A stretch of 64,000 nt of DNA from Alphaproteobacteria bacterium. GTDB taxonomy: Bacteria > Pseudomonadota > Alphaproteobacteria > GCA-2731375. Shown here piece by piece: positions 2,795-63,593 of the stretch. The notes beneath the pieces are model-generated. The model did no database searches. It was not told the DNA's origin and saw only the letters and a list, made by a program, of their open reading frames with translations. The DNA lies in the NCBI GenBank assembly GCA_965225945.1, contig CBDDBZ010000035.1, positions 96,001-160,000 on the forward strand, given 5' to 3'. How positions within the stretch are numbered: position 1 is the first letter of the stretch; each line of letters begins with the position of its first letter. The position numbers and the translations under genes were made by a program.

Positions 2795-2797
2795 CGG

Positions 2798-4465: not shown

Positions 4466-4592
4466 GGCCGTCCTCGCGCGGGTTTTGGCTGGGCGAGGAT
4501 AGCCCGCATCCGACGGCGCACAAGGGGCGGGGATGGCTTGCCCTCCTGGATGGTCGTAAGCTCGCGACCGGCGCGGGCGGGGAAAGCGAGGC

Positions 4593-23682: not shown

Positions 23683-25323
23683 ATGCGCGGATTGATGCAG
23701 GACCGGCCGCTTCTGATCTCGTCGCTGATCGACTATGCGGCCGAATACCACGGCGCAACCGAGATCGTCTCGAGGACGGTCGAGGGTCCGATTCATCGCC
23801 ATGACTATGGCGCGGCGCGGCGCCGCGCCATGCGGCTCGCGAACGCGTTGCAGGCCCTCGGCGTCGGCCAGGGTGATCGGATCGGCACGCTCGCCTGGAA
23901 CGGCTACCGCCACTTCGAGCTCTATTACGCCGTCTCCGGCATGGGCGCGGTGCTGCACACCATCAACCCGCGGCTCTTCGCGGAGCAGATTGTCTACATC
24001 GCCAATCATGCGGAGGACCGCTACATCTTTGCCGACCTCACCTTCGTGGCGCTGCTGGAGCAACTGGCGCCCGAGCTCGAAGGGGTCGCCGGCATCGTCG
24101 TGATGACCGACGAGGCGCATATGCCGGAAACGAACCTCGCGAACGTCCACTGTTACGAGACCCTGCTCGCCGGCGGCGCGGAAAGCTTCGATTGGCCGGC
24201 GTTGGACGAGAACGCCGCCTCCTCGCTCTGCTACACCTCGGGCACGACGGGAAACCCCAAGGGCGTGCTCTACAGCCATCGCTCGACCGTGCTGCACACC
24301 TATGCCGCCTGCATGCGCGACGTCATCGGGCTGGGCGCCGACGACGTGGTGATGCCGGTGGTGCCGATGTTCCACGCCAATTCCTGGGGCATCGCCTACG
24401 CCGCGCCGATGTCGGGCGCCAAGCTGGTGCTGCCGGGGCCCAGGATGGATGGCGCCAGCATTCACGAGCTGATGCGGGGGGAACGGGTCACCGTCTCCGC
24501 CGGCGTGCCGACGGTCTGGCTGATGTTGCTGCAATATTTGCGCGAGAGCGGCGAGAGCTTGCGCGATTTCAAGCGCTGCGTGATCGGCGGCTCGGCGGCG
24601 CCGCGCTCGATGATCGAGGCCTTCGAGACCGAGTACGACACCACCGTGCTGCATGCCTGGGGGATGACCGAGATGAGCCCCTTGGGCGTCGTCGGCACGA
24701 TGACGCCGGAGTTACTGCAACTGCCCTACGAACGCCAGCTCGACTACAAGGAAAAACAGGGTCGCGGCGTCTACGGCGTCGAGATGAAGATTATCGACGA
24801 CGACGGCAACGAGCTGCCACGCGACGGCGAGGCCTTCGGCCATCTGATGGCACGCGGGCCCTGGATCGCCAAGAGCTACTTCAAGGGCGAGGGTGGCGAG
24901 ATCCTGGACGGCGAGGATTGGTTCGATACCGGTGACGTCGCCACGCTCGACCCGTTGGGCTTCATGCACATCACCGACCGGGCCAAGGACGTCATCAAAT
25001 CGGGCGGCGAGTGGATCAGCTCGATCGACCTGGAGAACCTGGCGGTCGGCCATCCGGGCGTCGCCGAGGCGGCGGTGATCGGCGTGCCGCACCCGAAATG
25101 GGCCGAGCGGCCGCTGCTGATCGTGGTCCGCGCCGCTGGAGCCGAGCTCGGGGCCGCCGACCTGCTGAGGTACATGGACGGCAGAATCGCCAAGTGGTGG
25201 ATGCCGGACGACGTCGTCTTCGTCGAGGAGATCCCGCATACCGCGACCGGCAAGATCCAGAAGGTGCGCCTGCGCGAGCAATTCAAGGACCACCGGCTGC
25301 CGACCGTCGACGCGGCGCAATAG
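23683..25323 (+). CDS. Fatty acid-CoA ligase (AlkK/DmdB-like)
   Basis: [67 protein letters not shown]. Confidence 0.92.
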
Positions 25324-25655: not shown

Positions 25656-27248
25656 ATGACCGATAGTTCGAAGCGCCGCCGGGGGGCGGAGACCCGTGCA
25701 CCGGGAGGCGGCCACCCCCGTGGAAAATTCATGGCCGACATGCGCCGCTTCGCCCGCGATCGCGGCGGTGCGGGCGCGATCATGTTCGCCTTCGCGCTGC
25801 CGATCATGATCCTCTTCACCGCCCTCGCGGCCGAGGTGGGCGTGTGGTATGTCGAGAAGCGTCGACTCCAGGAGGCCGCCGACTCGGGCGCGCTGATGGG
25901 CGCCTTCGAGGTCAGAAGCGACAGCACCCTCACCGAGGCAGGTCTGCAGACGCCGGTGGAAAATGCCGTCGAGAACAGCTATTCGCGGATCGACACCGAA
26001 GGCAGTATGAGCGAAGTCACGGTCAACTTCCCGCCACACCAGGGCAGCTTCACGGCTGATGTGGCGGCGGTCGAAGTGATCATCGACCGCGACCATCCAA
26101 CCTTTTTCCTGCAGCTTATCGGCCGGACGTCGATCCCGATGAACGCCCGCGCGGTGGCGACGCAAAACCCCTACGGAGGTATCGCCGACGCCTGTATCCT
26201 GGCCCTCGGTACTGGCGCCTGCCCGGCGATCAACATCGCCGGTAACTCGAATGTCCAATTGACGGATTGTGCGATACATTCAAACGGGCCGTGCGACCCG
26301 GCGGTGGATTTAGACGGTACCGTCACCATTGTTGCGGATTGCATCACAGCGAGCACCAGCCTGCATAGCGACGTGACGGACGCTTACGTAGGCGACATTG
26401 CCGACTACGATGGATCCACCTCCGGCATCTACATGGACTGCGGCAATTATCCCCCGCCCATGGGCCCAATTACCGATCCGTTCGTAGGTTTGACGTATAA
26501 CGATCCAGTCGGCATGTGCGACCCCACCTTCGCCTACCTGGAAGAAAAGCATTGGCTGATCAACTTCGCCGAAATGCTCAACCCGATTCCGGCGGCACGC
26601 GCCGGCAACCACGGCGGCGGCGGTGGCGGCTTGGCGACCGAGATCGGCCCCGGCTTCTACTGCGGCGGCGTGATCAACGCCGATTTCGATCTGCTTCCGG
26701 GCGTCTACTACTTCAGCGGCAATACCACCTTTCACGGCACTATCGCCAGCAAGGCGGACGCCAACGGCGTCGAAGGCGTCGTCATAATCATGGTCGACCC
26801 GAACGATTCCACCGCAAGGTTCGATTTAAGTATCAATGGCGACGCCGCGACGCCGCTGAAGGCGCCGACCCTCACCGACATCCAGAATGACCTCATGAAC
26901 GGCACGAACTACTACGCCGCGCTCGCTGGCGAACAAAGCACCAGGACGGGCAGGGAGGCCTGGGCCGGGATGCTCTATTACGCCGCCAATCCGGCCAGCA
27001 ATTCCTGCACCACGTTCAACGGAAACTCCGAGCTCGCCTTTCAGGGCGCCGTATACCAACCCGAGGGCTGCATGAAGTTCGCCGGCACGACCGACGCCAG
27101 CGGCAGTTCGTGCCTGTTCTTGGTAGGGGAAGAGATCAGAATTAGCGGCACCGCGGGCTTGGACGTCACTGGCTGCGGCACGCAATTCGGCCTCGGAGGC
27201 GGCAGCTTCGGCGCTTCGGGCGTACAGTCGGTCGGACTGGTCGAATAG
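25656..27248 (+). CDS. tadG: TadG-like Flp/Tad pilus minor pilin / tip protein
   Basis: RFARDRGGAGAIMFAF pilin-like N-terminus, LQEAADSGALMGA, PTFFLQLIG, ARAVA, ACILAL, C-terminal GLVE. Confidence 0.8.
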   Translation: MTDSSKRRRGAETRAPGGGHPRGKFMADMRRFARDRGGAGAIMFAFALPIMILFTALAAEVGVWYVEKRRLQEAADSGALMGAFEVRSDSTLTEAGLQTPVENAVENSYSRIDTEGSMSEVTVNFPPHQGSFTADVAAVEVIIDRDHPTFFLQLIGRTSIPMNARAVATQNPYGGIADACILALGTGACPAINIAGNSNVQLTDCAIHSNGPCDPAVDLDGTVTIVADCITASTSLHSDVTDAYVGDIADYDGSTSGIYMDCGNYPPPMGPITDPFVGLTYNDPVGMCDPTFAYLEEKHWLINFAEMLNPIPAARAGNHGGGGGGLATEIGPGFYCGGVINADFDLLPGVYYFSGNTTFHGTIASKADANGVEGVVIIMVDPNDSTARFDLSINGDAATPLKAPTLTDIQNDLMNGTNYYAALAGEQSTRTGREAWAGMLYYAANPASNSCTTFNGNSELAFQGAVYQPEGCMKFAGTTDASGSSCLFLVGEEIRISGTAGLDVTGCGTQFGLGGGSFGASGVQSVGLVE

Positions 27249-27249
27249 G

Positions 27250-27771
27250 ATGGTGGCAATGCGGAACGGGGACAGGACGAAGAGGCGGCCCGGATTGCTC
27301 GCCAGGTTGCTTGCCGATCATCGAGGCTCCATCGCGGTCGAGGGCGCCTTCGTCGTAATTGCGCTGATGGCCTTGATGATGCCGTTGGTCGACTTCTCCC
27401 GCTATGTCTCGACGCAGGTGGAGTTGAAACAGGCGCTCAGGGCCGGTGCCCAATACGCTCTCTACGACAGCAAAGCCACGGCCTCCGGCAACAACGGCCC
27501 CATCGAACAGGCGATCATCGCCGCAACCAACGTGACGATTACGGCCTCCGACATCACCATCGATCCCTTGAGCTGCGAGTGCACCGACGGAACCGCCACG
27601 GTTTGCGTCGGCGAGGCGAGCTATACCGGCTGTGGTACCGGTGGCCTGATCGCGCCGGCGCATTTCATGACGATCACCGTCTCGGTCACCTTCGATCCGT
27701 TCTTCCCGCATCTACCCTGGTTCTCGGAAAATATGACGTTGAGTGAAAAATTGACCATGCGGGTCAGGTGA
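27250..27771 (+). CDS. tadE: TadE/TadG-family pseudopilin
   Basis: DHRGSIAVEGAF prepilin-like site, hydrophobic helix, ALRAGAQYA, CECTDG. Confidence 0.8.
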   Translation: MVAMRNGDRTKRRPGLLARLLADHRGSIAVEGAFVVIALMALMMPLVDFSRYVSTQVELKQALRAGAQYALYDSKATASGNNGPIEQAIIAATNVTITASDITIDPLSCECTDGTATVCVGEASYTGCGTGGLIAPAHFMTITVSVTFDPFFPHLPWFSENMTLSEKLTMRVR

Positions 27772-27772
27772 G

Positions 27773-28366
27773 GTGTGGACAATGCGACTCCTCGAGATGA
27801 AAAGAGACGCGGACGGCAACGGGACCGCGAGGCGGCGGGGCATCCGCCTGGCCGTTCGCCGTATGATCCGTTCCGAGGTCGGTGCGGCGGCCATCGAGTT
27901 CGCCTTCATCGGGCCGATCATCATCCTCATGCTGATCGCGGTCATCGAGTTCGGCCGGATGTTCTATACCCAGGCGAATCTGCAATATACGGCGGACGAG
28001 GCCGGCCGGGCGGTCATGGCCCATTTCACCCGCGAATACTTCATCGAATCCGATTCCGGCAATTGCTACGCCAAGGCGGGCGAGGTGCCGACGGACCAAG
28101 AGTTCACCGATCTGACCACCTGCGTCAAGGCGGAAATAACCAACTACATCTCCCAGAACGTCGTCGGTTACGACGAAGGCGACATTGTGCCCGACGTGAC
28201 CCACGTTTTGCCGAGTTCCACCGGCGGCAACAGCGTTCCGGGATTCGTCCGGATCCGCTTGAACTACAGCTACAACTTCATAATTCCCGTACCCTACTTC
28301 GGCTGGACCGGCGGCATGCCGCTGCACGCGGAGACGCGCGTGCCCTTGATCTGGTGCCGGAGCTGA
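27773..28366 (+). CDS. tadE: TadE-family pseudopilin
   Basis: GAAAIEFAFIGPIIILMLIAVIEFGR motif. Start could be 27773, 27782 or 27797. Confidence 0.85.
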   Translation: MWTMRLLEMKRDADGNGTARRRGIRLAVRRMIRSEVGAAAIEFAFIGPIIILMLIAVIEFGRMFYTQANLQYTADEAGRAVMAHFTREYFIESDSGNCYAKAGEVPTDQEFTDLTTCVKAEITNYISQNVVGYDEGDIVPDVTHVLPSSTGGNSVPGFVRIRLNYSYNFIIPVPYFGWTGGMPLHAETRVPLIWCRS

Positions 28367-33524: not shown

Positions 33525-33923
33525 CGTCGCGAGGCGGGTCGACGGCCGCCCGCGACGATTCGTTGAAACAAACGAAACTGTAATATCGCGGCTGGAGCTC
33601 GGCCAAATTCTTCGACGACACAGTATTCGCCAAGAAAGGCGCAAACAGCTTAGTGGATTGAGAGATAACGGAAAGTTCCCCCTCGTCATCAACAGTTATT
33701 TCGAATTGTTTCCGTAACCTAGCCCGAATACTCGAGTGAGGCTAAAATGATTCGATTCTGCGCGTCGATCTTCGACGGCGGTCCAAAGGAATGTGGCAAA
33801 GGTACTGTAAATGTCGTCTTGCAATCGCCTGACCATTCGTGCTCAAAACGGGCTCCCTCTCGGACCGGGGGGGACGGTGGGAATGCGTAGCGTGCCGGCG
33901 GCGACAGAATAGGGCGGGTCCCA

Positions 33924-35240
33924 GTGAAGAATGACACCAGCGCCAGCGGCGAGGCGGCGGCTTTCGAGGACGCCGGCACCGTTCGCGAGCATTCGGCGGC
34001 CGCCGGCCTGCCGGACACGCCGACGGTCTTCGCGCGGTTCTCGGCTTACAAGCAGCTCATGCGGCGGTTCCGCGAGGTCGAGGAGAAGCAGATCTCGCTG
34101 CCCTACTTCCTCCCCCGCGACAGCATCAACGACAGCGTCGTCAAGTGGGCGGACGGCCAGTACATTAACTGGTCCGGCTACAACTATCTGGGTCTCTCCG
34201 GGCATCCCGAGGTCTCCCGAGCGGCCAAGGACGCGATCGACCAATACGGCACCTCCGCCTCGGCCAGCCGCATCGTCTCCGGCCAGCTCGCGCTGCACGA
34301 GGAGCTGGAGCGCGAGATCGCCGATTTCCTCGGCGTCGAGGACTGCATCATTTTCGTCAGCGGCTACGGCACCAACGTCACCACGATCGGCCATCTCTTC
34401 GGGCGCAACGATCTGGTGATGCACGACACGCTGGCTCACAACAGCATCATCGCCGGCTGCGTGCAGTCGGAGGCGCGCCGCCTCAGCTTCCATCACAACG
34501 ACTGGGACCAGATGGATGCCGTGTTGCAGGCGCAGCGCACGAAGCATCGCAACGTCCTCGTCACGGTCGAGGCTGTCTACTCCATGGAGGGCGACATCGC
34601 GGACGTTCGCCGCGCCATCGAGATCAAGCGCAAGCACGACGCCCTGCTGATGGTCGACGAGGCCCACTCGCTCGGCATCCTCGGCGCCAACGGCGGTGGC
34701 ATCTGCGAGCATTTCGGCATCGACCCCCGGGATATCGACATCCATATGGGGACCTTGTCCAAGACCTTCGCGAGCTGCGGCGGCTTCATCGCCGGCGAGC
34801 GGGCGCTGGTCCAGTTGCTGCGCTATACCGCGCCCGGCTTCATCTTCTCGGTCGGGCTTTCGCCACCGGACACGGCGGCGGCGCTCGCGGCCCTTCGGGT
34901 CCTCCGCCGCGAGGGCAACCGGGTCGGCGAGCTGCGCCAGCGCGCCCGCTTCTTCCGCGACTGCGCGCGGGAATACGGCCTGAACATGGGCTCCGACGAC
35001 GACACGCCGATCGTGCCGCTGGTCGTCGGCGACCCGCATCGCTGCATGCGTTTGAGCCAACGGCTGTTCGAACTCGGCATCCACGTCCAGCCGATCGTCT
35101 ATCCGGCGGTCAAGGCGGACGCGGCCAGGCTTCGCTTCTTCATCACGATCAACCACACCGAGGAGCAGACCCGCCACACCATGGCGACGGTCGCCCGAGA
35201 GTTGGCGAAGCTCCACTCGGAGGGCGACGCCGCCAACTGA
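33924..35240 (+). CDS. PLP-dependent alpha-oxoamine synthase (SPT/BioF/WcbT-RkpG-like)
   Basis: YNYLGL, GTSASASRIVSG, AHNSI, FHHND, VYSMEGD, VDEAHSLG, GTLSKTFASCGG (PLP Lys), ARLRFF. Confidence 0.9.
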   Translation: MKNDTSASGEAAAFEDAGTVREHSAAAGLPDTPTVFARFSAYKQLMRRFREVEEKQISLPYFLPRDSINDSVVKWADGQYINWSGYNYLGLSGHPEVSRAAKDAIDQYGTSASASRIVSGQLALHEELEREIADFLGVEDCIIFVSGYGTNVTTIGHLFGRNDLVMHDTLAHNSIIAGCVQSEARRLSFHHNDWDQMDAVLQAQRTKHRNVLVTVEAVYSMEGDIADVRRAIEIKRKHDALLMVDEAHSLGILGANGGGICEHFGIDPRDIDIHMGTLSKTFASCGGFIAGERALVQLLRYTAPGFIFSVGLSPPDTAAALAALRVLRREGNRVGELRQRARFFRDCAREYGLNMGSDDDTPIVPLVVGDPHRCMRLSQRLFELGIHVQPIVYPAVKADAARLRFFITINHTEEQTRHTMATVARELAKLHSEGDAAN

Positions 35241-36046
35241 TGCGGCCCGGCCATGCCATCGTCAGCGGCGGCTCCAGCGGAATCGGCCTGGCACTCTCGC
35301 GCCGCCTCTCCGCCGCCGGCTGGTCTCTCACCATCATCGCCCGCGATCTCGCGCGGCTGGAGGCGGCGCGCGAGGAATTGACGCGTACCGGTGGCGGCGA
35401 GGTCCATTTGGAAAGCGCCGACGTCGCCGACTCCTCGGCGATCGAGGCCGCCGTCGGCCGGGCGATCCAGCGCTTGGGACCGCCCGGCCTCGTGGTCGCC
35501 AGCGCCGGCACGGCGCAACCCGGCTATTTCGAGGAGTTGCCGCTCGAGGTCTTCGAGCGCGCCATGGCGGTCAACTATTTCGGCGCGCTGCATCTCGTCC
35601 GTGCCGCCCTGCCGGCGCTGCGGGCAGCGCGGTCGGGGCGGATCGTGCTGATCGGCTCCGGCGCGGGGCTCGTCGGCCTGTTCGGCTACGCCGCCTATTC
35701 GCCGAGCAAGTTCGCGCTCCGGGGCTTCGCCGAAGCGCTCCGGGCGGAACTCCGGCCGGCGGGCGTCGGGGTCTCGATCGTCTATCCGCCCGACACCGAC
35801 ACGCCGCAACTCGCGGCCGAGAACGAAACCAAGCCGGCCGAGACCCGGGCCATCACCAAGGCCGGCGGCGTCATGAGCCCCGAGGCGGTCGCGGGCGCGA
35901 TTCTGAAGGGGATCGAACGCGGCCGCTTCTGCATTACCCCCGGCTGGGAGATGACCCTGCTGGCGCCGCTCGCCGGCCCGCTGGCACCGCTGCTGCGGAG
36001 ATATTTCGACCATCTGGCGCGCCGCGCCGCCCGCAAGAGAAGGTAG
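35240..36046 (+). CDS. KDSR-like short-chain dehydrogenase/reductase
   Basis: SGGSSGIG, catalytic YSPSK, and YPPDTDTP...ENETKPAET typical of 3-ketodihydrosphingosine reductase-like SDRs. TGATG overlap with the upstream gene. Confidence 0.85.
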   Translation: [268 protein letters not shown]

Positions 36047-36054
36047 CGATCGAC

Positions 36055-36867
36055 ATGACCGACAAACTCGCCGACTTCGGTGGCGGCATACCCGCGAACT
36101 ACGACCATGGCCTCGGGCCGCACATCTTCGTCGACTATGCCGCCGATCCCGCGGCCCGCGTCGCCGGGGGTGCGCCGGTGGACGTGCTCGAGCTGGCGGC
36201 GGGCACGGGCATCGTCAGCCGGGCGCTCCGCGACGCACTAGCGCCGACGGCGCGGCTGCTGGCGAGCGACCTGTCGGAGGGCATGCTGGCGGTGGCGCGC
36301 GGCAAGTTCGGCGCGGGTGAGCGGGTCGAGTTCCGGACTGCCGACGCGACGGCGCTGCCGTTCGAGGGCGATAGCTTCGACGCCGTCGCCTGTCAATTCG
36401 GCGTGATGTTCTTTCCCGACCAGGACGAGGGGTATCGCGAGGCATGGCGGGTGTTGCGCTGCGGCGGCCACTATCATTTCAACGTCTCGGATTCCATCGA
36501 CCACAATCCCTTCGCCCGGGTGACCGGCGAGGTCGCGACCGGGTTTTTTCCCGAGGATCCGCCCCGGTTTTACGATGTACCGTTCGGCTATTACCGGATC
36601 GAGCCGGTCAAGGAGGCCCTGTTGGCGGCCGGCTTCGCCGATATCGAGGCCGCCGTGGTGACGATCGACAAGGAGATCCCGGAGGCGGCGGTGTTTGCCC
36701 GGGGCTTAGTCCATGGCAATCCGTTGATCGAGGAGATCAAGTCGCGCGGCGGCGTCGAGCCCGAGGCGGTGGTGGAGGCACTCACGCGCGCCCTCCAGGA
36801 CGCCTTCGGCGCCGATCCCGGCCGCATGCCCCTCCAGGCGATCGTCTTTTCCGCTCGCAAGCCCTGA
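36055..36867 (+). CDS. Class I SAM-dependent methyltransferase
   Basis: VLELAAGTG, ADATALPF, FDAVACQFGVMFFPD. Confidence 0.9.
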   Translation: MTDKLADFGGGIPANYDHGLGPHIFVDYAADPAARVAGGAPVDVLELAAGTGIVSRALRDALAPTARLLASDLSEGMLAVARGKFGAGERVEFRTADATALPFEGDSFDAVACQFGVMFFPDQDEGYREAWRVLRCGGHYHFNVSDSIDHNPFARVTGEVATGFFPEDPPRFYDVPFGYYRIEPVKEALLAAGFADIEAAVVTIDKEIPEAAVFARGLVHGNPLIEEIKSRGGVEPEAVVEALTRALQDAFGADPGRMPLQAIVFSARKP

Positions 36868-36878
36868 CCGCGTCACCC

Positions 36879-37925
36879 CTAACGCCGTTCGCGCCGGGGC
36901 AAGAGACGCGCCAGCGCCGCCGCCGGCAGGAAGCTCAGGCCGTTGCAGAAGATCACCAGCATCACCGCATGGATCACGCCCCCGGCACCGTAGTGGAGCA
37001 GCAGCTCGAGCAGGTCCGGCATGTTGGCGAGCACCGCCTCGCGCCAGGCGGGGGAACAGCTCGTGGCGAGGAGAAGCGGCAGGACGACGAGCGAGGTCAG
37101 GGCGAGCAGCCAGTTGAGCCCGCCCATCCGCTCCCGGCCTCGGCGAAATTCGAAATAATTGTAGATGCCGTAGAGCACCAGCGTCGGCCAGATCAGCAGG
37201 TCGAGCTGACGGTCGATCAGCATCTCCCGCGCGAGGCCCCGGCTGGGACAGAGCTCCCCCAGCAGGCGCGAAGGGTTGATCGCCAGGGTCTCCACGAGCG
37301 CGACCCACGCCTCGAAGCTGTCGGGGCGCTGGTGGGCGAGCCAGAGCAAGCCTGCGGTATAGCCCGCCACCAGCACCAGATAGCCGAGCGCCAGCCAGTC
37401 GGAGACGAAGAGCACCACCTCTTCCTCGTCGTCATCCTCGGGCGCATCCGCCTGCCGGTCGCCGGCGATCGCGGCGCGGGCCGCCAGCTCGCGGGCGATC
37501 TCCGCCACGTTCCCGGCGTTGGTGCCGCCGTCGAACAGTTGCAGGCGCTTCGGCCGGCTTCGCACCCGGACCTCGCTGCGCCCGGCGGCGGTCGGCGCGA
37601 CGCGGATCGAGACGACCTCGCCAAAGCTCTGCTCGCCGGCCGCCGTGCGGGCGACCAGCTCGGGCACCGGTCCCTCGTTCGCCTCGATCTCGGGACGCCC
37701 CGGCAACGTGGCGAGGGCGGCCCAGCCATGATCGACCGTCTCCTCCGCTCGCGGCGAGAGTGTCAGCGTCTTCTGGAATTGGCAGAAGCCGGGTGCGAGC
37801 TCGACGCCCAGGCGCTCGGCGTGGCGCCTCGCCACCCGACGGCTGGCGAGGCGAAGCACGACCAACGCCACGACCGCCACCGCGATGGCGAGGGATGTCC
37901 AAAGCGCGACGTCGATGAGCGTCAT
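36879..37925 (-). CDS. Hypothetical membrane protein
   Basis: N-terminal TM, soluble domain (SFGEVVSIRV...SEVRVRSRP...DGGTNAGNV), acidic linker, multi-TM C-terminus. Confidence 0.7.
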   Translation of the reverse strand: MTLIDVALWTSLAIAVAVVALVVLRLASRRVARRHAERLGVELAPGFCQFQKTLTLSPRAEETVDHGWAALATLPGRPEIEANEGPVPELVARTAAGEQSFGEVVSIRVAPTAAGRSEVRVRSRPKRLQLFDGGTNAGNVAEIARELAARAAIAGDRQADAPEDDDEEEVVLFVSDWLALGYLVLVAGYTAGLLWLAHQRPDSFEAWVALVETLAINPSRLLGELCPSRGLAREMLIDRQLDLLIWPTLVLYGIYNYFEFRRGRERMGGLNWLLALTSLVVLPLLLATSCSPAWREAVLANMPDLLELLLHYGAGGVIHAVMLVIFCNGLSFLPAAALARLLPRRERR

Positions 37926-37954
37926 CACCAATCAGACTGAGTTTCGCCGCGCCG

Positions 37955-39031
37955 TCAGTCCTTGTCCCCGCGTTGGCGATCGAGTTGCAGGCGGGCCATG
38001 AACGGCAGGAAGGGGTGGACGCCGAGCGCGTGCATCCTCGCCTCGTCCAAGGACATCAGCGCCGCCCGTTCCGCCTCGCTCAAGGCGTGCCCGCGGGCGA
38101 AGGCTTGCGTGTCGGCGAGATAGCGGGCCCGCGCCTCGGCGTCGTTGGCGAGCGTGTGCAGGGCCGCGCTCAAGGCCACCCGGTCGGCCCGGATCTCGGG
38201 ATAGTGCGGCGGGGCTGCGCTCATCCCCGGCGGCGTCCACCAGGCGAGGGTCGCATAATCGTGGTGCCAGGACGGGTCGAGCGAAGCCATGTCCGGCTTG
38301 CGCTCCCCCAGCATGCCGGCGGCGACGGCCCAGCAGCGAAGCTCGATGTTGCCGGTCCGGTCCAAGCTCGCCTCGTCGAGCGAGAGCAGCCAGCGGAGAT
38401 TGCCGGCCTCGAGCTCGGCCATCAATTTTCGGTCGAAGGCGAGATCGGGGTGGGCATAGCGCTCGGTGCCGGGAAAGTGGGAGAGCCCACCGCTCGCCAC
38501 CACCACCGCGCGGAGCCCGAGCACCGCGAGCCCCCGCGCCAGCGCCCGGCCGAAGCCATGGCAGCGCTCGATCGACGGCTGCGGCGGGATATAGGCGTTG
38601 ACATAGACCGGGAGGATCGGGCCGACGACGCCGAGAAAATCCAGCGGGATGCCGAAGGCGTAATCGAGCGCGGCGTTGGAGGAGAACGCCGGATCGAAGC
38701 CTTCGGCCTGCAGATGGCGGATCAGGGCGCTGGAGGCCTCGTGCGCGACCTCGTGGCGAAACTCCCGGCCGGCGAAGCCGCCCACCGCCTCCGGGCCCCG
38801 ATGCAGCATGAAGGGCGGCACGCAGTGCAGCAGGAACTGGTTGGCGTGATCGTTGGCGATGACGACGTGGAGGTCCGGTTGCAGAGCCTGGAGCCGGCGT
38901 CCGTTGTCGGCGGCCAGCGCGCGGACGCGTTCGACCGTCGCCTTGTCCTCGGTTTCCGGCAAGGTGAAAAACTGCGGCGCGTGCGCCATGAAGACGCCGC
39001 CCAATATCGTCGTGGTCGTGGCCGTCGTCAT
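37955..39031 (-). CDS. Class III extradiol ring-cleavage dioxygenase, LigB domain fused to a C-terminal LigA-like domain
   Basis: MAHAP, NDH, ASGGLSH.PG, GNIELRCW; C-terminal ARYLAD...LSEAERAAL...LGVHPFL. Confidence 0.82.
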   Translation of the reverse strand: MTTATTTTILGGVFMAHAPQFFTLPETEDKATVERVRALAADNGRRLQALQPDLHVVIANDHANQFLLHCVPPFMLHRGPEAVGGFAGREFRHEVAHEASSALIRHLQAEGFDPAFSSNAALDYAFGIPLDFLGVVGPILPVYVNAYIPPQPSIERCHGFGRALARGLAVLGLRAVVVASGGLSHFPGTERYAHPDLAFDRKLMAELEAGNLRWLLSLDEASLDRTGNIELRCWAVAAGMLGERKPDMASLDPSWHHDYATLAWWTPPGMSAAPPHYPEIRADRVALSAALHTLANDAEARARYLADTQAFARGHALSEAERAALMSLDEARMHALGVHPFLPFMARLQLDRQRGDKD

Positions 39032-39136
39032 GTCTGGGCCTCGCCGCCTTCCCCGTCCATGCCACATCTTAAAGCGCCCGGGGGCCGCGTGATAGGATGG
39101 CCGCCGTCGTGGGGCGCCGGGGTCGGACGTGGCGAG

Positions 39137-40009
39137 ATGAACGAGGTTGTCGGTCTTTTCGTTCTGTCGCTGCTGGCGCTCGGCGCCGTCGTGGTGCTGG
39201 TCCTGCCGCGCGTGGCGCCGACGCGGATGGAGGCCGGTCCCCTCTGGCGGCTCTATGGCGCGCAACTCGTCATCGTCGGCTTTATCCTGGGCCCGGCCTA
39301 TCTCGGTGGCTGGGCGCACCTCGCCGCCCTCGTCGTGCTCGTCGTCCGCGCGCAGTGGGAGTTCCTGCGCCTCACCAAGCCGGGAGGCACCTGGAGCCAT
39401 GCCACCCTGGCGCTCGGCGTCGTCGGCTTGCTGGCGGCGGGTTGGCTGGATTCGACTAGTGGCTGGTCGGCCTTTCTGCTGGCGCCGCTCGCCGGGCTCG
39501 CCCTGATCCCCCGCTCGGCGACGCGACCCTTCGCGCTCGAGGCGGCGAGCCTGGTGATCCCCGCCACCCTGGTCGCGAGCCTGGCGCTCCTGGGCCAATT
39601 CGAGAACGGCTTCGCCTGGATCGCCTTCGTCTACGTGGTGGTGGAGGTGAACGACACCGCCGCCTACCTTCTAGGCAAGGCCTTCGGCCGGCGGCGGATC
39701 CTGCCGCGCCTCAGTCCCTCCAAGACCGGAGCGGGGCTCGCCGGCGGCATTGCCTCGGCGCTCCTCGCCGGCCTCGCCGTCGCTGTCTTGGCCCTGGACC
39801 TTCCGTGGGCAATCGCGCTCGGCGCCGTGCTCGCGGCGCTCTTGGGCGGCATCGCCGGCGATCTCGCCACGTCCTGGATCAAGCGGCGGTGGGAGGCGAA
39901 GGATTTCCCCGCGCTGCACCCGGCGCTCGGCGGCGCGCTGGACATCTACGATTCACTGCTCTTCGCGGCGCCGCCGGTCTGTCTTTACCACCGCCTCGTC
40001 GTCGCCTGA
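39137..40009 (+). CDS. Phosphatidate cytidylyltransferase (CdsA/YnbB-like)
   Basis: NDTAAYLLGKAFGR, PRLSPSKT, GDLATSWIKR...KDF....P..GGALDIYDSL (CTP_transf_1 signature). Confidence 0.85.
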   Translation: MNEVVGLFVLSLLALGAVVVLVLPRVAPTRMEAGPLWRLYGAQLVIVGFILGPAYLGGWAHLAALVVLVVRAQWEFLRLTKPGGTWSHATLALGVVGLLAAGWLDSTSGWSAFLLAPLAGLALIPRSATRPFALEAASLVIPATLVASLALLGQFENGFAWIAFVYVVVEVNDTAAYLLGKAFGRRRILPRLSPSKTGAGLAGGIASALLAGLAVAVLALDLPWAIALGAVLAALLGGIAGDLATSWIKRRWEAKDFPALHPALGGALDIYDSLLFAAPPVCLYHRLVVA

Positions 40010-41701
40010 CGTCCCGGCGGCGGCGAGCACGCTGCCGTCCTCGGCGACCAACGCCGGCGTCCGGCCGCCTTGGTGGTCGCTCATCTGGACGATCCGCCCG
40101 TAGTCCATCTTGATCAGTCGGTCGCAGGCGTGGAAGTAGGCGTCGTCGTGGGTCACCGCGATCACCGTCTTGCCGCGCGCCTTCAGCTCGGGCAGCAGAT
40201 CGTTGTAGAAGAATTGTCGGAAGCCCGGATCCTGGTCGGCGGCGAATTCGTCCAGCACGTAGATCTGGCGGTCTTCCAGCGCGGCCACGGCGTAGGCCAG
40301 GCGCTTTCGCTGCCCCGTCGACAAGGCCACGGTCGTGAAGGCGTCGCCATCGAAGCGCGTCTTGCGCGCCAGTTGCATCAGTCGGAGCAAGCGGTCGAGC
40401 TGCCCCAGGTCCGGGTCGGCCATGCCGTGGAGACGGCGGAAGAGGTGGAAGTCGTTGTAGATGGCCGAGAACATCTCCCGGTAGGCCTGCCGCTCGGCGA
40501 CAGGTACCGGCCGGCCGTCGACCAGGATCTGCCCGGCGCTGGCTGTGTAGAGCGCGGTCAGCACCTTGAGCAAGGTGGTCTTGCCCGAGCCGTTGCCGCC
40601 GACGATGAACAGCACCTCGCCACGCCGGATCTCCAGATCCACCGGTCCGAGGTCGAAGGCATCGTCGCTTCCGGCCTCGGCGAAATCGAACTCGATGCCT
40701 TGGAGGCTCAGCGTCTCGAAGGTCATCGCCTCGACCGCCCTGGCCCGGTTCTCGTCCGCCGCCACCTCGGCGTCGAGCGCGGCTTCCAGCTCCCGGACCT
40801 TGCGTAGCGACACCCGGGCCTTGGTCAGGCGTGGGATGGCGGTGACCAGGCTCTCCACCGGGCCGATCAGGAACAGGATGGCGGCGAGGAAGGAGAAGAC
40901 GGTGGCGCCGATCTCCGGCAGCACCTGGGGCAGGATGAAAATGAACACGCCGATCAAGCCGAAGAGGAAGATCTGCGAGGTCATGAAGCCCCGGATGAAG
41001 AGGATCTCCGCGCCGACGTTGAGGTCGCGGTAGTCGCTGGAGACTGCGTCGATCGCATCCTCGACGTCGACGTGGCGGGCCCGATTGAGCTTGATCTCCT
41101 TGTAGCCGTCGAGGATGTCCTTGATGCCGGTGAAGAATTCGGCCTCCTGGGCCCGGGCCGCCCGCACCTTGCTCGCCGCGCGGCGGGCCTGGGCGACGTA
41201 GACCAGGACACCGGCGACGAGGGCGGCGATGGTGCACGACAGCGCCGCCGGCGAGAGCCAGCCGATGTAGCCGAGGCAAAACAGCAGCAGCACCACGTTC
41301 TGCACCGCTTTCAGGAACTTGATCGCCGAGCGGGCAACCTGGGTGATGTCGGTGGTGAGGCGCGCGTAGATCTCGCCGTTCCCTTGGGCTTCGATGAAGC
41401 GCAGGTTGGTGAACAGCAGCTTTTCCGAAATCCGCATGCGCAGTTGCTTGGTCATCTCCTCGACCATCATCTGCATGCGGCTGAGGGCATAGTAGTTGAC
41501 CGCCGCAAACAACAGGACGAAGAAGATGAAGGCGCCGAAATAGCCCCATTCGAACTGGCTCGCCATCACCGCCGCCGCGCCGGCGTTGATCGTCGTCAAG
41601 ATCATGCCGCGCGCCAGGCCCGAGGCCATCGAGGCCCCCATGACGCGGAGCCGCGAGCCCGGTATCTCGCGATAGAAGAAGCGGACGAGTTCGAATGCCA
41701 T
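39953..41701 (-). CDS. SyrD/PvdE/YojI-type cyclic-peptide export ABC transporter
   Basis: GYKEIKLN, FDLGPVDL, FIVGGNGSGKTT, LSTGQRKRLA, LDEFAADQDPGFR..FY, VTHDDAYF. ATG at 41701. Confidence 0.9.
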   Translation of the reverse strand: MAFELVRFFYREIPGSRLRVMGASMASGLARGMILTTINAGAAAVMASQFEWGYFGAFIFFVLLFAAVNYYALSRMQMMVEEMTKQLRMRISEKLLFTNLRFIEAQGNGEIYARLTTDITQVARSAIKFLKAVQNVVLLLFCLGYIGWLSPAALSCTIAALVAGVLVYVAQARRAASKVRAARAQEAEFFTGIKDILDGYKEIKLNRARHVDVEDAIDAVSSDYRDLNVGAEILFIRGFMTSQIFLFGLIGVFIFILPQVLPEIGATVFSFLAAILFLIGPVESLVTAIPRLTKARVSLRKVRELEAALDAEVAADENRARAVEAMTFETLSLQGIEFDFAEAGSDDAFDLGPVDLEIRRGEVLFIVGGNGSGKTTLLKVLTALYTASAGQILVDGRPVPVAERQAYREMFSAIYNDFHLFRRLHGMADPDLGQLDRLLRLMQLARKTRFDGDAFTTVALSTGQRKRLAYAVAALEDRQIYVLDEFAADQDPGFRQFFYNDLLPELKARGKTVIAVTHDDAYFHACDRLIKMDYGRIVQMSDHQGGRTPALVAEDGSVLAAAGTSGDDEAVVKTDRRRREEQ

Positions 41702-41730: not shown

Positions 41731-42357
41731 CTAGCCGTTCTTCTCCACCTGCGACTCGATCATCCGACGCGCACGGAAAAACCGCTGGATCGCCGTTGCG
41801 TGCGTCAGAATCGCGAGCAAGATCAATAGGTAATAGAGCGGACCCGGGGTAATTTCCAGCCAAATCTGGAGCAGCGGATCGAGCACCAGGGCGAGGCAGA
41901 GAAAGACGATCCGCTCCAACCGCTCCATCAGGTCGGGCCATTTCACGTTGTCGATCGGCACCTCGATGGCGGCCCGCGCCTTCAGATAGCTGATCAGCAG
42001 CGAGCCGGTGAGCGCCAACAACGCCGGTCCCCAATAGTCGTTCACCCAGGCGATCGCCAGGAAGACCACGATCTCCTGATAGCGGTCGACCACGGCGTCG
42101 AGATAGCCGCCGAAGCGGCTCGCGCGGCCGGTGACCCGGGCGAGCGCGCCGTCCAGCGCGTCGAAGGCGAAGGTGAGGGCGAGCAGCAGCCCGAAGACGG
42201 CGTGGTTTCGATGCCAGGCGTAGAAGGCGCAGTTCGCCAGCACCAGGGCCAAGCCTAGCAGCGTCACCTGATTGGGACTGATGCCGAGCACGGCGATAGG
42301 CCGCGCCACGGCGTCCCAATAGCGATCCGTCGCCGCCTTGTTCAGCCCGTCCAACAT
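41731..42357 (-). CDS. CDP-alcohol phosphatidyltransferase family
   Basis: SPNQVT, signature DALDGALAR.....SRFGGYLDAVVDR, LISYLKARA, ERLER. Confidence 0.92.
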   Translation of the reverse strand: MLDGLNKAATDRYWDAVARPIAVLGISPNQVTLLGLALVLANCAFYAWHRNHAVFGLLLALTFAFDALDGALARVTGRASRFGGYLDAVVDRYQEIVVFLAIAWVNDYWGPALLALTGSLLISYLKARAAIEVPIDNVKWPDLMERLERIVFLCLALVLDPLLQIWLEITPGPLYYLLILLAILTHATAIQRFFRARRMIESQVEKNG

Positions 42358-42454
42358 GGTCCATACGCCATGGCGTTGTGGTGAATCGGCCCCCAGAATA
42401 GCGCATGCGCGAAATCGTCGGAAGTGGACGCCCTCGGGGGCCGCGCTCACGCGC

Positions 42455-43999
42455 TCAGGATGCGCCGGGACCTCGCCATCGCCGGCCAGACCGCGCGACC
42501 TCGAGGAAGCGCCGGTAGCGCATATCGTAGCGGGCCGCCTGCGAGGGGTCGGGCTGGTAGCGCTCGGCTTCCCGCGTCATGGCACCGGCTGCCGCCAGGT
42601 CGGAGCTCCAGCCAAGCGCCACCGCCGCCAGCATCGCGACCCCCCGGGCGCCCGCGAGATCGGGTTCCGCCGTCCGGGCGAGCGCGAGCCCGGTCACATC
42701 TGCGATGATCCGGCACCAGAGGTCGCTGACGGCGCCGCCGCCCACGATCCGCGCCGTCGACGGCGCCGCGCGCAGGGATTTTTCCATCGCCTCCAGCGCC
42801 CAGCGCGCGTTCAGCGCCACGCCCTCCAGCACCGCCCGCGCCAATTCGCCCCGCCCGCTCGAGAGCGCCAAGCCGATGAAGCCGGCCCTCAAGTCCGGGT
42901 CGTCCACCGGCACCCGCTCGCCCTGCAGCCAGGGCAGGAACAGCGGGCCGTCGGGCCCGCTCCCGGCCTCTCGCGCGGCGGCGTCGAAGGCGGCCAAGTT
43001 GCCGCCGAAGCCGAGGGCGTTCGCGGCCCAGGCGACGGCGGCGCCGGCCGATTCCTGCGTCGCCACGAGCAGATAACGGTCCCGCTCCGCCGCCGCGAGC
43101 GTGCCGATCCCCCGCGCGACGTCGACCTTCGGGCGGTCCCGGTGCGCGCCCCACCAACTGCTGGTGCCGAGGTAGAGGTAGAGCGCCTCCGTCGCCCGGA
43201 CCCCGGCCCCCAGCGCCGAGGCCAGGACGTCGCCCGCCCCCGCCACCATCGGCGTTCCCGCCCGCAGGCCCAGGTCGTCGGCCGCCTCCGGCCGCAAGCC
43301 GCCGACGAACTCGGCGGCCGGGCGAATCTCGGAAAGCCGCGCGCGGTCCAGTCCGACGCGGCGCAGCAACGCCTCCGACCATTCCCAGCGTCCCGGTCGG
43401 GCATCCATCAGCCAGGTGAGATGGGCGCAATCGGGCGTCGTCGCCCATTCGCCGGTGGCGCGATGGAGCAGATACTCCTTGACGTCGGGAAGGCGTCGCG
43501 CCCGCGCCCAGAGCGCCGCTTGCTCGTCGCGGAGCCAGAGCATCTTGGAGAGAGGGTCCTTGCCCGAAAGGTTGGGCGCGCCGTTGGTCAGCCGGAGCCA
43601 AGAGAGCAGCGCAAAGACGCCGTAGCCGTGTATGCGCGGCCAGCCGGCCATCAGGCGGCGGGCTTGGCCCGCGCTTCGGGTATCGAGCCAGATCATGGCG
43701 TCCTGGAGCGCCGCGCCGGCCTCGTCGACCGCCACCACGCCCCCCATCTGGGCGGCAATCGCCACGGCGGCGACGGAATCGGGTGCGATCTCCGCCTCGG
43801 CCAGCATGCGCCGGCTCGCCCGCGCCATCGCTTCCCACCAATCGTCGGGCCGCTGTTCGGCCCAACCCGGCTCCGGCTGGAACAGCGGATAGCTCTCGCG
43901 CGCCCGTGCCGCCACCCGGCCCTCGGCGTCGAACAGGGCCGACTTGACGGACGAGGTGCCGAAGTCGTAACCGAGGATCAGATCGCCGCCCGGGGTCAT
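42455..43999 (-). CDS. FGGY-family carbohydrate kinase (xylulokinase-like)
   Basis: LGYDFGTSSVK, PGWAEQ.P, WLDTRS, AGAGD, YLGTSSW, FLPWLQGER.P, RAVLEGVA, GGGA.S.LW..IIADV. Confidence 0.9.
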   Translation of the reverse strand: MTPGGDLILGYDFGTSSVKSALFDAEGRVAARARESYPLFQPEPGWAEQRPDDWWEAMARASRRMLAEAEIAPDSVAAVAIAAQMGGVVAVDEAGAALQDAMIWLDTRSAGQARRLMAGWPRIHGYGVFALLSWLRLTNGAPNLSGKDPLSKMLWLRDEQAALWARARRLPDVKEYLLHRATGEWATTPDCAHLTWLMDARPGRWEWSEALLRRVGLDRARLSEIRPAAEFVGGLRPEAADDLGLRAGTPMVAGAGDVLASALGAGVRATEALYLYLGTSSWWGAHRDRPKVDVARGIGTLAAAERDRYLLVATQESAGAAVAWAANALGFGGNLAAFDAAAREAGSGPDGPLFLPWLQGERVPVDDPDLRAGFIGLALSSGRGELARAVLEGVALNARWALEAMEKSLRAAPSTARIVGGGAVSDLWCRIIADVTGLALARTAEPDLAGARGVAMLAAVALGWSSDLAAAGAMTREAERYQPDPSQAARYDMRYRRFLEVARSGRRWRGPGAS

Positions 44000-44095
44000 G
44001 GCCCGCTCGGCCACCCGGACCGGGGCGCGGGGCGGCACGGCCGCCGCCCGCGCCGCCGGCGGGCCTGGTGGACGACACCTGGGGAAGATTGCCGT

Positions 44096-45178
44096 ATGGC
44101 TTCGATCATCGCCGCCCCGGTTGTATTCGTGCTCGTGCTTCTGGGGCTGGTCTTCTTCTGGAACTACTGGCCCCTGCGCAAATACGTCTATATCAAGACC
44201 AGCCCGTCATGGAAGCGGCTGGCCCGGATCCAGACCTTCGATCCGGCGGCGGAGGCGGCGGAGGAGCGGAACCTCTTCGTCTCCTCGACGGTGATGCGCG
44301 AGGCTTGCGACATCGTCTGGCACGAGGGCGAGGAGAGCCCGCCCGAGGCGCTGCTGGAACCGCTCGCCCACGGCACCGTGGTTCACCTCAATTCCAAGCA
44401 CGTCCAGCGCTTCGCGGAGGCGGTGTTGCCCCGACTGCGAGCGCCGATCGTACTGGTGGTGGGCTGCGATACCGTGACCCCCCGGGTGCCGGGGTTCGAG
44501 GCCATCCTCGCCGCCGACAGGATCCTGCATTGGTTCCTGCAGAACGACGATCTGGGCGCCGAACATCGCGACCGCGTGAGCCAACTGCCGCTCGGCCTCG
44601 ACTATCACAAGCTGGAGCCGGCGGGCGACAACACCAGCAGCGACATGGGCCTGCCGTCGCGCGCCGGCAACCAGCAGCTCACCCTGCGGGCGATCCGCGA
44701 CACCATCGCGCCGCTTCGAGCGCGGCCGGCCCGGGTCTATGCCAACTTCCACCTGAACATGGACAGCTTCCTCCGCTCCCAGGAGGCGCTGAAACGCCGC
44801 CAGGCCCGCCAGGAGGCATGGGACGTGCTCCGGGATGCCGCCTTCATGGATTTCGAGCGCCAGCAGACGCCGCGCAACGAGGTCTGGCGGCGCCACGTCG
44901 ACGTCGCCTTCGAGGCCTCGCCCCACGGCAACGGCCTCGACTGCCATCGCACCTGGGAGGCGCTGCTGCTGAAGACGGTGCCGATCGTCAAGACCAGCGT
45001 GCTCGATTCCCTTTACGACGGCCTGCCGGTGGTGATCGTCGAGGACTGGCCGGAGATCACCACCGAAGCGCTGGAGGCCTGGCGCGAGGAATACGCCGAG
45101 GCCTTCGACGGGCCGATCCCGGAGGTGCTGTTCTCCAACCATTGGATCGAGCGGTTCAACGCCTGGAAAAGCCAATAA
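44096..45178 (+). CDS. Membrane-anchored exostosin/GT47-like hypothetical protein
   Basis: N-terminal TM, HWFLQN, LPLGLDYH, FEASPHGNGLDCHRTWEALLL...PIVK...LPVVIVEDW.EIT. Confidence 0.65.
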   Translation: MASIIAAPVVFVLVLLGLVFFWNYWPLRKYVYIKTSPSWKRLARIQTFDPAAEAAEERNLFVSSTVMREACDIVWHEGEESPPEALLEPLAHGTVVHLNSKHVQRFAEAVLPRLRAPIVLVVGCDTVTPRVPGFEAILAADRILHWFLQNDDLGAEHRDRVSQLPLGLDYHKLEPAGDNTSSDMGLPSRAGNQQLTLRAIRDTIAPLRARPARVYANFHLNMDSFLRSQEALKRRQARQEAWDVLRDAAFMDFERQQTPRNEVWRRHVDVAFEASPHGNGLDCHRTWEALLLKTVPIVKTSVLDSLYDGLPVVIVEDWPEITTEALEAWREEYAEAFDGPIPEVLFSNHWIERFNAWKSQ

Positions 45179-62641: not shown

Positions 62642-62656
62642 CGCCCGGACGCCGCT

Positions 62657-63509: not shown

Positions 63510-63593
63510 GCTCCGCCTCCCTTCAACATCGATCGCGCCCGCCCGCTTTCCCCCCCCTGCCGCTTTCCCGGTTCGCCTCGAACATGAAACCCG

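Follow-up and report, generated by a model that had tools for sequence, protein, structure and literature searches.

A candidate sphingoid-base module without a polyketide synthase in an alphaproteobacterial operon for an alpha-oxoamine synthase and a KDSR-like reductase

A three-gene transcription unit

Here, we analysed a stretch of DNA of 64,000 nucleotides from an Alphaproteobacteria bacterium (assembly GCA_965225945.1, contig CBDDBZ010000035.1, positions 96,001 to 160,000 of the forward strand), in which three adjacent genes encode an alpha-oxoamine synthase (AOS), a short-chain reductase (SDR) and a class I methyltransferase (MT) dependent on S-adenosylmethionine (SAM). This whole 64-kb stretch is called the window, and all positions refer to it unless a locus label (L0xx) is given. 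An earlier note, made from the letters of this DNA without database searches, had read the three genes as an operon in which an AOS resembling serine palmitoyltransferase (SPT) and a eukaryote-type reductase resembling 3-ketodihydrosphingosine reductase (KDSR) make a reduced, possibly methylated, sphinganine-like amino alcohol. The coordinates of these genes and of the other features discussed are collected in Table 1.

The gene structure was found to be as that note described it. At the AOS/SDR junction (CAACTGATGCGG), the TGA stop (35238-35240) and the ATG start (35240-35242) share one A to give TGATG, and the TAG stop of the SDR gene is followed after 8 nt (CGATCGAC) by the ATG of the MT gene. 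A convergent gene starts 12 nt past the MT stop. Given the 1-nt overlap, the 8-nt spacer, the common strand and the convergent gene right after MT, the three genes form a single transcription unit. Their third-position GC (0.91 for AOS, 0.88 for SDR and 0.86 for MT) is typical of coding sequence in this window, whose overall G+C is 67.8%. The AT-richer region of about 400 bp upstream of AOS is also present and is presumed to hold the promoter; a sigma-70 scan of this spacer returned 0 promoter-like sites, a terminator scan and a search for repeats in the spacer gave nothing informative, and no Rfam family was matched in a scan of the whole window.

Relatives of the three encoded proteins

The AOS carries an Aminotran_1_2 domain (Pfam, 9.5e-43) together with the lysine that binds pyridoxal phosphate (PLP) and the His/Asp/His cage around PLP, as members of its superfamily do. 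Its best match in the PDB is the SPT of Sphingobacterium multivorum (8guh, 4.5e-69), with which its His, Asp, His and Thr-x-Ser-Lys align at His138, Asp210, His213, Thr241, Ser243 and Lys244, Ser81 being matched too; all of these residues are named around PLP or the substrate carboxylate in the report on 8guh (PMC10196870). To place the enzyme, a tree of 40 rows was built from the window AOS, 31 AOSs adjoining relatives of the SDR (the partial sequences of L023 and L027 were dropped), Escherichia coli BioF and Kbl, an Agrobacterium 5-aminolevulinate synthase, the SPTs of Parabacteroides distasonis and Roseomonas mucosa, and AOSs adjacent to a polyketide synthase (PKS) in Pseudomonas, Burkholderia and Sinorhizobium meliloti.

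As a result, the window AOS fell in a clade of 20 of the 40 rows with 99% SH-aLRT support that includes ten PKS-linked AOSs; PKS-linked members come from Pseudomonas, Burkholderia, cyanobacteria and Sinorhizobium (rkp-1 region). The same clade holds an AOS of Acaryochloris linked to a fatty acyl-AMP ligase (FAAL) and an acyl carrier protein (ACP), as well as the AOSs of inositol clusters in Stappia and Shimia. Identity to the window AOS is 50% for a Pseudomonas plasmid AOS located after a type I PKS and 43% for the AOS of the S. meliloti rkp-1 region, and the nearest relatives in the sequence database are 83-99% identical. In approximately unbiased (AU) tests, trees in which the window AOS joins BioF (p 0.0029) or BioF plus Kbl (6e-6) were rejected, as was one that unites it exclusively with the two validated SPTs (5e-10). 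By its sequence, the AOS is thus of the RkpG/SgaB type and not a member of the canonical SPT clade; a resemblance to RkpG, which the earlier note had entered as a caveat, turned out to be the main result of the phylogeny. The characterised member of this type, SgaB of Pseudomonas fluorescens MYb115, almost exclusively uses L-serine in vitro and forms 3-keto long-chain bases (PMC12134224), and by analogy with SgaB the window AOS probably acts as a C-acyltransferase of serine (or another small amino acid).

The SDR matches adh_short (Pfam, 9.5e-47) and has GGSSGIG, N112, S140, Y153 and K157, as in classical SDRs, all of them invariant across an alignment of 22 sequences. The motifs quoted for it earlier, ENETKPAET included, occur verbatim in its translation. 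Its best sequence match in the PDB is TSC10 of Cryptococcus (8jat, 4.7e-29, 105.3 bits, aligned over 3-234), and this alignment takes in the AEN.TKPA.T segment, whereas that of the next best match, 2jah, stops at residue 190. With a profile of 22 bacterial relatives, TSC10 again came first and its lead widened, at 156.7 bits ahead of entries with 142.6 and 133.0; the alignments of protein and profile reach residues 234/237. TSC10 has the AEN.TKP part and lacks PPDTDTP, and its overall identity to the SDR is low.

Among bacteria, thousands of SDR homologues were found at 55-62% identity, many of them automatically named '3-dehydrosphinganine reductase', and the nearest relatives in the sequence database reach 70-94%; an Atlas search with the SDR returned bacterial clusters only, with automatic names. 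An SDR tree of 84 rows placed the window protein, with 95% support, in a group of 20 that includes all seven SDRs linked to an inositol-phosphate synthase (MIPS). The SDR of the S. meliloti rkp-1 region, whose genes we take to be rkpA/G/H/I/J (these names are not annotated in the record), is 43% identical and belongs to the same family; the KDSR-like family discussed here corresponds to this rhizobial SDR. The SDR is probably an NADPH-dependent, KDSR-like 3-keto reductase of the RkpH type that acts on the AOS product. As the SDR is of the same family as that of rkp-1 and the AOS is of the RkpG/SgaB type, the pair belongs to a widespread bacterial module. Of the eukaryote-type label once given to the SDR, the part that stands is that its nearest solved relative in sequence is TSC10; the idea of an isolated eukaryote-like import does not.

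We then compared 80 SDR loci, collected with one genome per species by a pattern scan that used the SDR alignment; the patterns (PPDTDTPQ and [TS]GGSSGIG[LK]A) bias this sample towards the PPDTDTPQ subfamily. Of these loci, 33 contain an AOS homologue, which in 29 of the 80 lies no more than 3 kb from the SDR. The linkage was seen in Cyanobacteriota, Chloroflexota, Spirochaetota, Rhizobiaceae, Roseobacteraceae/Stappiaceae and Burkholderiaceae, with both gene orders and both AOS clades. Nothing argues more strongly that the SDR takes the AOS product as its substrate than this pairing with both AOS clades in both orders, and the recurrence of the pairing across phyla makes 'condense then reduce' the best reading of the two genes. 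Pfam scans of the neighbours distinguished at least four architectures (Table 1).

The third gene of the operon has no such record. The MT matches Methyltransf_25 (Pfam, 4.1e-20) as well as Methyltransf_11/12/31, with a Rossmann-like SAM-binding domain, and its predicted model (pLDDT 83.8) has a methyltransferase fold. It belongs to a very large family, with thousands of matches at 60-66% identity (best 66%), and among solved structures the fungal thiol methyltransferases GtmA/TmtA come closest (9.5e-11 by sequence; TM 0.68 for the fold of GtmA). The sequence and fold searches for its substrate placed it only among small-molecule methyltransferases. An MT homologue was present in 0 of the 80 SDR loci; in addition, a contig carrying both an 83% identical AOS and a 77% identical SDR gave no MT match, which is a hint only. 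Because it is missing from the 80 loci, we regard MT as a lineage-specific, co-transcribed accessory, which may modify the base or a later product. Neither this absence nor the thiol methyltransferases as closest solved relatives supports the possible methylation put forward in the earlier note, and a methylated sphingoid base is a conjecture.

A proposed two-step pathway and its alternatives

Building on gene structure, family placement and synteny, we infer the substrates, the product, the order of reactions and the roles of MT and the neighbouring genes. The reading that we favour, with some reserve, is that the AOS and the SDR make a sphinganine-type long-chain 2-amino-3-hydroxy lipid base, and hence constitute a PKS-less sphingoid-base module. 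In a first step, the AOS would form a 3-keto long-chain base by condensing a small amino acid, most likely L-serine, and a fatty acyl thioester. With no adjacent gene for a PKS, FAAL or ACP, the thioester would be expected to come from the general pool. In a second step, the KDSR-like SDR would reduce the 3-keto group with NADPH. It is plausible that the products of the CdsA-like, PIP-synthase-like, FGGY kinase and ABC exporter genes downstream equip the lipid with a phospho-polyol head group and export it. The eukaryote-like order of the pathway, namely reduction before N-acylation, cannot be read from sequence.

Several observations weigh against this reading. The AOS stays under every NCBIfam SPT cut-off (models NF047600, NF047599 and NF047603), with 324 bits on the Cytophaga-Flavobacterium-Bacteroides (CFB) type (cut-off 640), 275 on the beta type (500) and 222 on the alpha type (670); as controls, the AOSs of P. 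distasonis (684, above 640) and R. mucosa (626, above 500) pass. The highest-scoring NCBIfam model is that of BioF (TIGR00858, 356 bits, cut-off 426), slightly above the SPT scores. In the tree, the two NCBIfam-validated SPTs lie in a separate 98% clade with Chloroflexi and Spirochaete AOSs, and the window AOS is outside it. Moreover, the PLP-site residues compared above are common to the AOS family, and amino-acid specificity is not fixed by sequence. The proposal of an SPT-like synthase holds in that the tree and the AU tests make the enzyme SPT-like and not BioF; it lies outside the canonical SPT clade and below the SPT cut-offs. On the SDR side, the lead of TSC10 is small when the single SDR sequence is used (105.3 vs 102.6 bits), and a Foldseek search of the predicted SDR model (pLDDT 88) against the PDB returned generic SDRs and 11beta-/17beta-hydroxysteroid dehydrogenases at the top, with 8jat not among the matches listed, to rank 48; Foldseek does not discriminate KDSRs, since all SDR folds look alike. 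The Pseudomonas plasmid cluster whose AOS is 50% identical has a different SDR (L082:16371-17156), which lacks PPDTDTP and AEN.TKP and aligns only to residue 183. As for context, no AOS was found in the examined DNA of 47 of the 80 loci, a sample already biased by its search patterns, and the nearest relatives of the window SDR among these loci, L045 and L046, adjoin a Hint-module gene and have no AOS nearby. No N-acyltransferase was recognised near the operon, and the window contains no homologue of MIPS, DUF4833 or LptF/G, the absence of MIPS being the one that counts here.

An alternative is that the operon makes a small, possibly methylated, exported amino alcohol or ketone, a signal or natural product formed from alanine, glycine or another amino acid and a medium-chain acyl donor, which would not be a membrane sphingolipid precursor. 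The MT resembles natural-product methyltransferases (GtmA/TmtA, OxaG and RoqN), a gene for a major facilitator superfamily (MFS) transporter lies upstream of AOS on the same strand, no ceramide-synthase-like gene was recognised nearby, and AOSs of other clades make such products, although the CqsA model gives only 194.5 bits on the window AOS, under its cut-off of 428. However, neither MFS nor MT homologues occur in any of the 80 related loci (0/80 each), lipid head-group genes recur with the SDR, and the nearest solved relative of the SDR acts on long-chain 3-keto bases; furthermore, the AOS clade includes a serine-specific enzyme that uses C16-C20 acyl-CoA (PMC12134224). We consider such a product unlikely, though still worth keeping in view.

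The product might instead be a lipid on which a surface polysaccharide is primed or anchored, a role that has reportedly long been suggested for the rkp-1 (Sinorhizobium) and wcb-type clusters. This idea draws on the 43% identity of both the AOS and the SDR to an S. meliloti region with a large PKS, a KpsS-like gene and KpsF, and on 6 of the 80 loci, where KpsS-like genes lie no further than 3 kb from the SDR. It is nevertheless distinctly improbable for the window, where no PKS or KpsS/KpsC/KpsF-like gene was found among the open reading frames (ORFs) scanned and the SDR groups with inositol-cluster SDRs, apart from the rhizobial ones. It is very improbable that the SDR acts on a substrate unrelated to the AOS, such as an inositol- or polyol-derived ketone, and that the adjacency of the two genes is incidental: the SDR does lie between MIPS and a CTP_transf_1 gene in seven loci, three of which (L049, L059 and L070) show no AOS in the examined DNA, and the 47 loci in which no AOS was found there point the same way, but the genes are translationally coupled through TGATG in the window, an AOS of one or the other clade adjoins the SDR in 29 of the 80 loci, which span several phyla, and the sequence match to a reductase of 3-keto long-chain bases is full-length. 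Finally, an AOS of primary metabolism, acting in biotin synthesis (BioF) or threonine degradation (Kbl), can practically be dismissed: although BioF is the top NCBIfam model and many AOS homologues are named '8-amino-7-oxononanoate synthase' by JGI, the score is under the cut-off, the AU tests reject both groupings, E. coli BioF and Kbl match only the AOS in a tblastn search of the window (32-33% identity), and E. coli BioA, BioB, BioC, BioD and Tdh have no match there (E<=1e-3), in agreement with the absence of bio genes noted earlier.

Neighbouring genes, known systems and significance

The genes downstream of the operon include several candidates for head-group synthesis (Table 1). The CdsA-like protein is under the NCBIfam cut-off for phosphatidate cytidylyltransferase (67.5 vs 385 bits), and its homologues directly follow the SDR in seven alphaproteobacterial loci; we regard it as a candidate head-group activation enzyme. 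The CDP-alcohol phosphatidyltransferase resembling phosphatidylinositol phosphate (PIP) synthase is likewise below the cut-offs for archaetidylinositol phosphate synthase (140.5 bits, cut-off 180) and PIP synthase (90.8, cut-off 170), and 5 of the 80 loci have a homologue, 46-55% identical, at most 10 kb away from the SDR. Together with the FGGY kinase it forms a pair that is kept at 39-55% identity in L021, L023, L024, L049 and L070 (5/80), and homologues of the ABC exporter lie near the SDR in L023 and L059. The 360-aa protein divergent from the kinase has a weak match (E 5e-5) beside the PIP-synthase-like gene of L049.

Table 1 Coordinates of the features in the window and layouts of related loci
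Feature	Position	Strand	Remarks
AT-richer intergenic region, presumed promoter region	33525-33923	+	399 nt, 54.9% G+C, core 47%
Alpha-oxoamine synthase (AOS)	33924-35240	+	GTG start, 438 aa
Short-chain reductase (SDR)	35240-36046	+	268 aa
Class I SAM-dependent methyltransferase (MT)	36055-36867	+	270 aa
Membrane protein of no known family, convergent	36879-37931	-	350 aa; not in conserved module
LigB/LigA-like class III extradiol dioxygenase family protein	37955-39031	-	LigB 1.3e-26, LigA 4.8e-06
Divergent CdsA-like cytidylyltransferase (CTP_transf_1)	39137-40009	+	Pfam 1.3e-40
Fused permease/ATPase ABC exporter	39953-41701	-	TIGR01194 367.9 bits (cut-off 286); ATG start 41701
PIP-synthase-like CDP-alcohol phosphatidyltransferase	41731-42450	-	CDP-OH_P_transf 4.1e-13
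FGGY-family carbohydrate kinase	42455-44038	-	XylB model 307.8 bits (cut-off 380); probable start 43999
360-aa protein with N-terminal membrane anchor	44096-45178	+	No Pfam family; divergent from FGGY kinase
Architecture 1, Rhizobiaceae			PKS-AOS-SDR-sulfatase-domain-KpsS-like-KpsF (rkp-1 layout)
Architecture 2, Cyanobacteria			PKS-AOS-SDR; PKS-AOS fusion + SDR; FAAL-ACP-AOS-...-SDR; FAAL-ACP-AOS fusion + SDR
Architecture 3, Chloroflexi and Spirochaetes			SDR then AOS; best model CFB-type SPT (520, 489 bits)
Architecture 4, Stappia/Shimia			AOS-DUF4833-inositol-phosphate synthase-SDR-CTP_transf_1-LptF/G-like-glycosyltransferase-FGGY kinase-PIP-synthase-like-ABC exporter
MIPS-SDR-CTP_transf_1 loci	L021, L024, L044, L049, L070 ~10000; L023 ~2600; L059 ~6500

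In seven alphaproteobacterial loci, the SDR lies directly between MIPS and a CTP_transf_1 gene, a core that L049, L059 and L070 keep with no AOS in the examined DNA. Such loci, from marine and other alphaproteobacteria, also carry LptF/G-like permeases, glycosyltransferases, nucleotidyl (NTP) transferases, FGGY kinases and PIP-synthase-like transferases, with a GINT1_N-domain protein in L070 and a Stealth-family protein in L021 as extras, and their content suggests glycosylated inositol-phospho-sphingolipids. In Stappia (L021:2101-6011), a phosphoenolpyruvate (PEP) mutase, a thiamine-pyrophosphate (TPP) enzyme resembling phosphonopyruvate decarboxylase and an aminotransferase are encoded just upstream of AOS, which hints at a 2-aminoethylphosphonate head group. 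A far-reaching version of the pathway can be drawn from these genes: the window would hold a reduced form of an undescribed alphaproteobacterial route to phospho-inositol sphingolipids, similar to glycosyl inositol phosphoceramides (GIPC), or to phospho-polyol sphingolipids, in which the RkpG-type AOS and the KDSR-like reductase act in the eukaryote-like order, the head group is added by the CdsA-like and PIP-synthase-like enzymes by way of a lipid activated with CDP, which might be of the CDP-ceramide type, the FGGY kinase takes over from MIPS in supplying the polyol phosphate, and MT gives an N- or O-methylated base. Taken as a whole, this version is doubtful and rather unlikely to be right.

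The other neighbours are less conserved. Homologues of the MFS transporter, the 350-aa membrane protein and the LigB-like gene were each found in 0 of the 80 loci; the membrane protein has no Pfam family (permissive search included), no NCBIfam family and no usable Atlas match, and the LigB-like protein is probably unrelated to the module. No ketosynthase (KS), FAAL or ACP was found among the ORFs scanned from 16.6 to 52 kb, and the gene upstream of AOS is that of the MFS transporter. The ORF at 37955-39598 was trimmed to 39031, as the CdsA-like gene occupies the opposite strand, and the plus-strand ORF 42338-45178 was rejected as a gene because it shadows 42455-44038, where the opposite strand encodes the FGGY kinase. 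Both this ORF and that at 37973-40009 are partly shadows of opposite-strand genes, as is common in high-GC DNA, and only their 3' parts (44096-45178 and 39137-40009) look real. In L046 (8599-11254) and L045 (8443-11113), the SDRs are C-terminally extended and follow a Hint-module protein, with a rhodanese domain fused in L046.

Elsewhere in the window, two IS1595-family transposase genes (51267-52253, plus strand; 58113-59078, minus strand) were found, and the G+C of 51-54 kb is lower, at about 61-63%. Hydantoinase/oxoprolinase-type sets lie at 752-4792 (minus) and 45245-47293 (plus), with caprolactamase subunits as the best NCBIfam models, below cut-off. The segment 10207-15581 (minus) combines a formyl-CoA transferase with fumarylacetoacetase, a homogentisate-dioxygenase-like gene and 4-hydroxyphenylpyruvate dioxygenase (aromatic amino-acid catabolism), and three TadE/TadG-like genes of Flp-pilus assembly (25656-28366, plus) are preceded by an acyl-CoA ligase gene (23683-25323) above the cut-off for 3-(methylthio)propionyl-CoA ligase and by genes for a CHASE4 histidine kinase and a response regulator. 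At the left edge is a fragment of an HpnL-like hopanoid-associated membrane protein (17-748, plus), and at the right edge are Mla/MCE-type lipid-transport genes (MlaD-, MlaF- and MlaE-like; 61631-63986, minus).

To return to the sphingoid-base module, it shares features with several known systems. The PKS-derived sphinganines of P. fluorescens MYb115 belong to the SgaA/SgaB/SgaC system; the window AOS belongs to the same clade of PKS-adjacent AOSs and is 50% identical to the Pseudomonas plasmid AOS in the same arrangement, but the window has no iterative PKS before the AOS and no KpsC/KpsS, GNAT or lipoteichoic-acid (LTA)-synthase genes. In the 2025 report, the step of SgaC, a KDSR homologue, is proposed for the MYb115 PKS-AOS cluster, and 6,101 homologous PKS clusters are counted (PMC12134224). 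The S. meliloti rkp-1 region has the AOS-then-SDR order in common with the window, with 43% identity for each protein, and its SDR carries PPDTETP; it differs in its 2,500-aa PKS and capsule genes, and its SDR is without AEN.TKP, the window SDR being in another subclade. A literature search that did not take in the original rkp papers found no paper on the function of rkpG/rkpH.

Eukaryotic SPT followed by KDSR (TSC10/FVT1) carries out the same two reaction types as those proposed here, and of all solved structures TSC10 comes closest to the SDR in sequence, with a match that extends through the substrate-side C-terminal region; unlike the eukaryotic system, however, the window AOS is of the soluble, homodimeric bacterial type, the genes are operonic, and identity to TSC10 is low. 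The enzyme table of a 2018 review contains eukaryotic KDSRs only (PMC6148460). In a later report, BT_0972 of Bacteroides is presented as the first bacterial KDSR, an SDR that converts 3-ketodihydrosphingosine to sphinganine, is unlinked to SPT and is only about 16-30% identical to eukaryotic KDSRs (PMC9278070). Reduction of this ketone by a bacterial SDR is also what we propose for the window, whose AOS is not of the CFB SPT type. The Bacteroides inositol-lipid cluster comprises MIPS, the PIP synthase BT_1523, a PIP phosphatase and an inositol phosphorylceramide (IPC) synthase (PMC9246714). Here too a PIP-synthase-like transferase lies near sphingoid-base genes, and related alphaproteobacterial loci carry MIPS, whereas the window has no MIPS, a transferase below the PIP-synthase cut-offs, and a CdsA-like gene and an FGGY kinase alongside. 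The Caulobacter-type pathway uses Spt, bCerS and CerR with an ACP and an ACP-synthetase, and acylates before reducing; an alphaproteobacterial setting and an AOS as the first step are shared with the window, but the score of the window AOS on the alphaproteobacterial SPT model (222 bits) stays below the cut-off of 670, and the AOS has no ACP gene next to it.

Overall, these comparisons place the AOS-SDR pair, as a member that does without a PKS, in a widespread bacterial module of AOS and KDSR-like SDR, which is partly described and includes the Sinorhizobium rkp-1 pair and the cyanobacterial PKS/FAAL-AOS-SDR clusters. It is neither a new kind of pathway nor a singular eukaryote-type one, and a KDSR-like bacterial step had already been proposed in 2025. 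The window plausibly differs from the known module in its missing PKS, its added MT and its links to genes of the CdsA-like and PIP-synthase-like kinds. Of the leads found here, the inositol/polyol head-group neighbourhood of alphaproteobacteria is the more novel. No description of a PKS-less AOS-KDSR-like-MT operon or of MIPS-SDR-CdsA-like clusters was found in a literature search that left most subscription journals outside its reach.

Bacterial sphingolipid synthesis has been described through two routes, that of Caulobacter, which acylates and then reduces, and that of Bacteroides, with an SPT and an unlinked KDSR. If the reading of the window as a sphingoid-base module is true, a third arrangement would be common in environmental bacteria, in which an RkpG-type AOS and a KDSR-like reductase share an operon and no PKS is needed. 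Its two genes could then serve as a compact marker for predicting which genomes and metagenomes contain sphingoid-base producers, and the pair would be a simple system for probing the function of the rhizobial rkp-1 AOS/SDR pair. Furthermore, in marine alphaproteobacteria the SDR is repeatedly linked to MIPS and to CdsA-like and PIP-synthase-like genes, which suggests that inositol-type sphingolipids also occur outside Bacteroidota.

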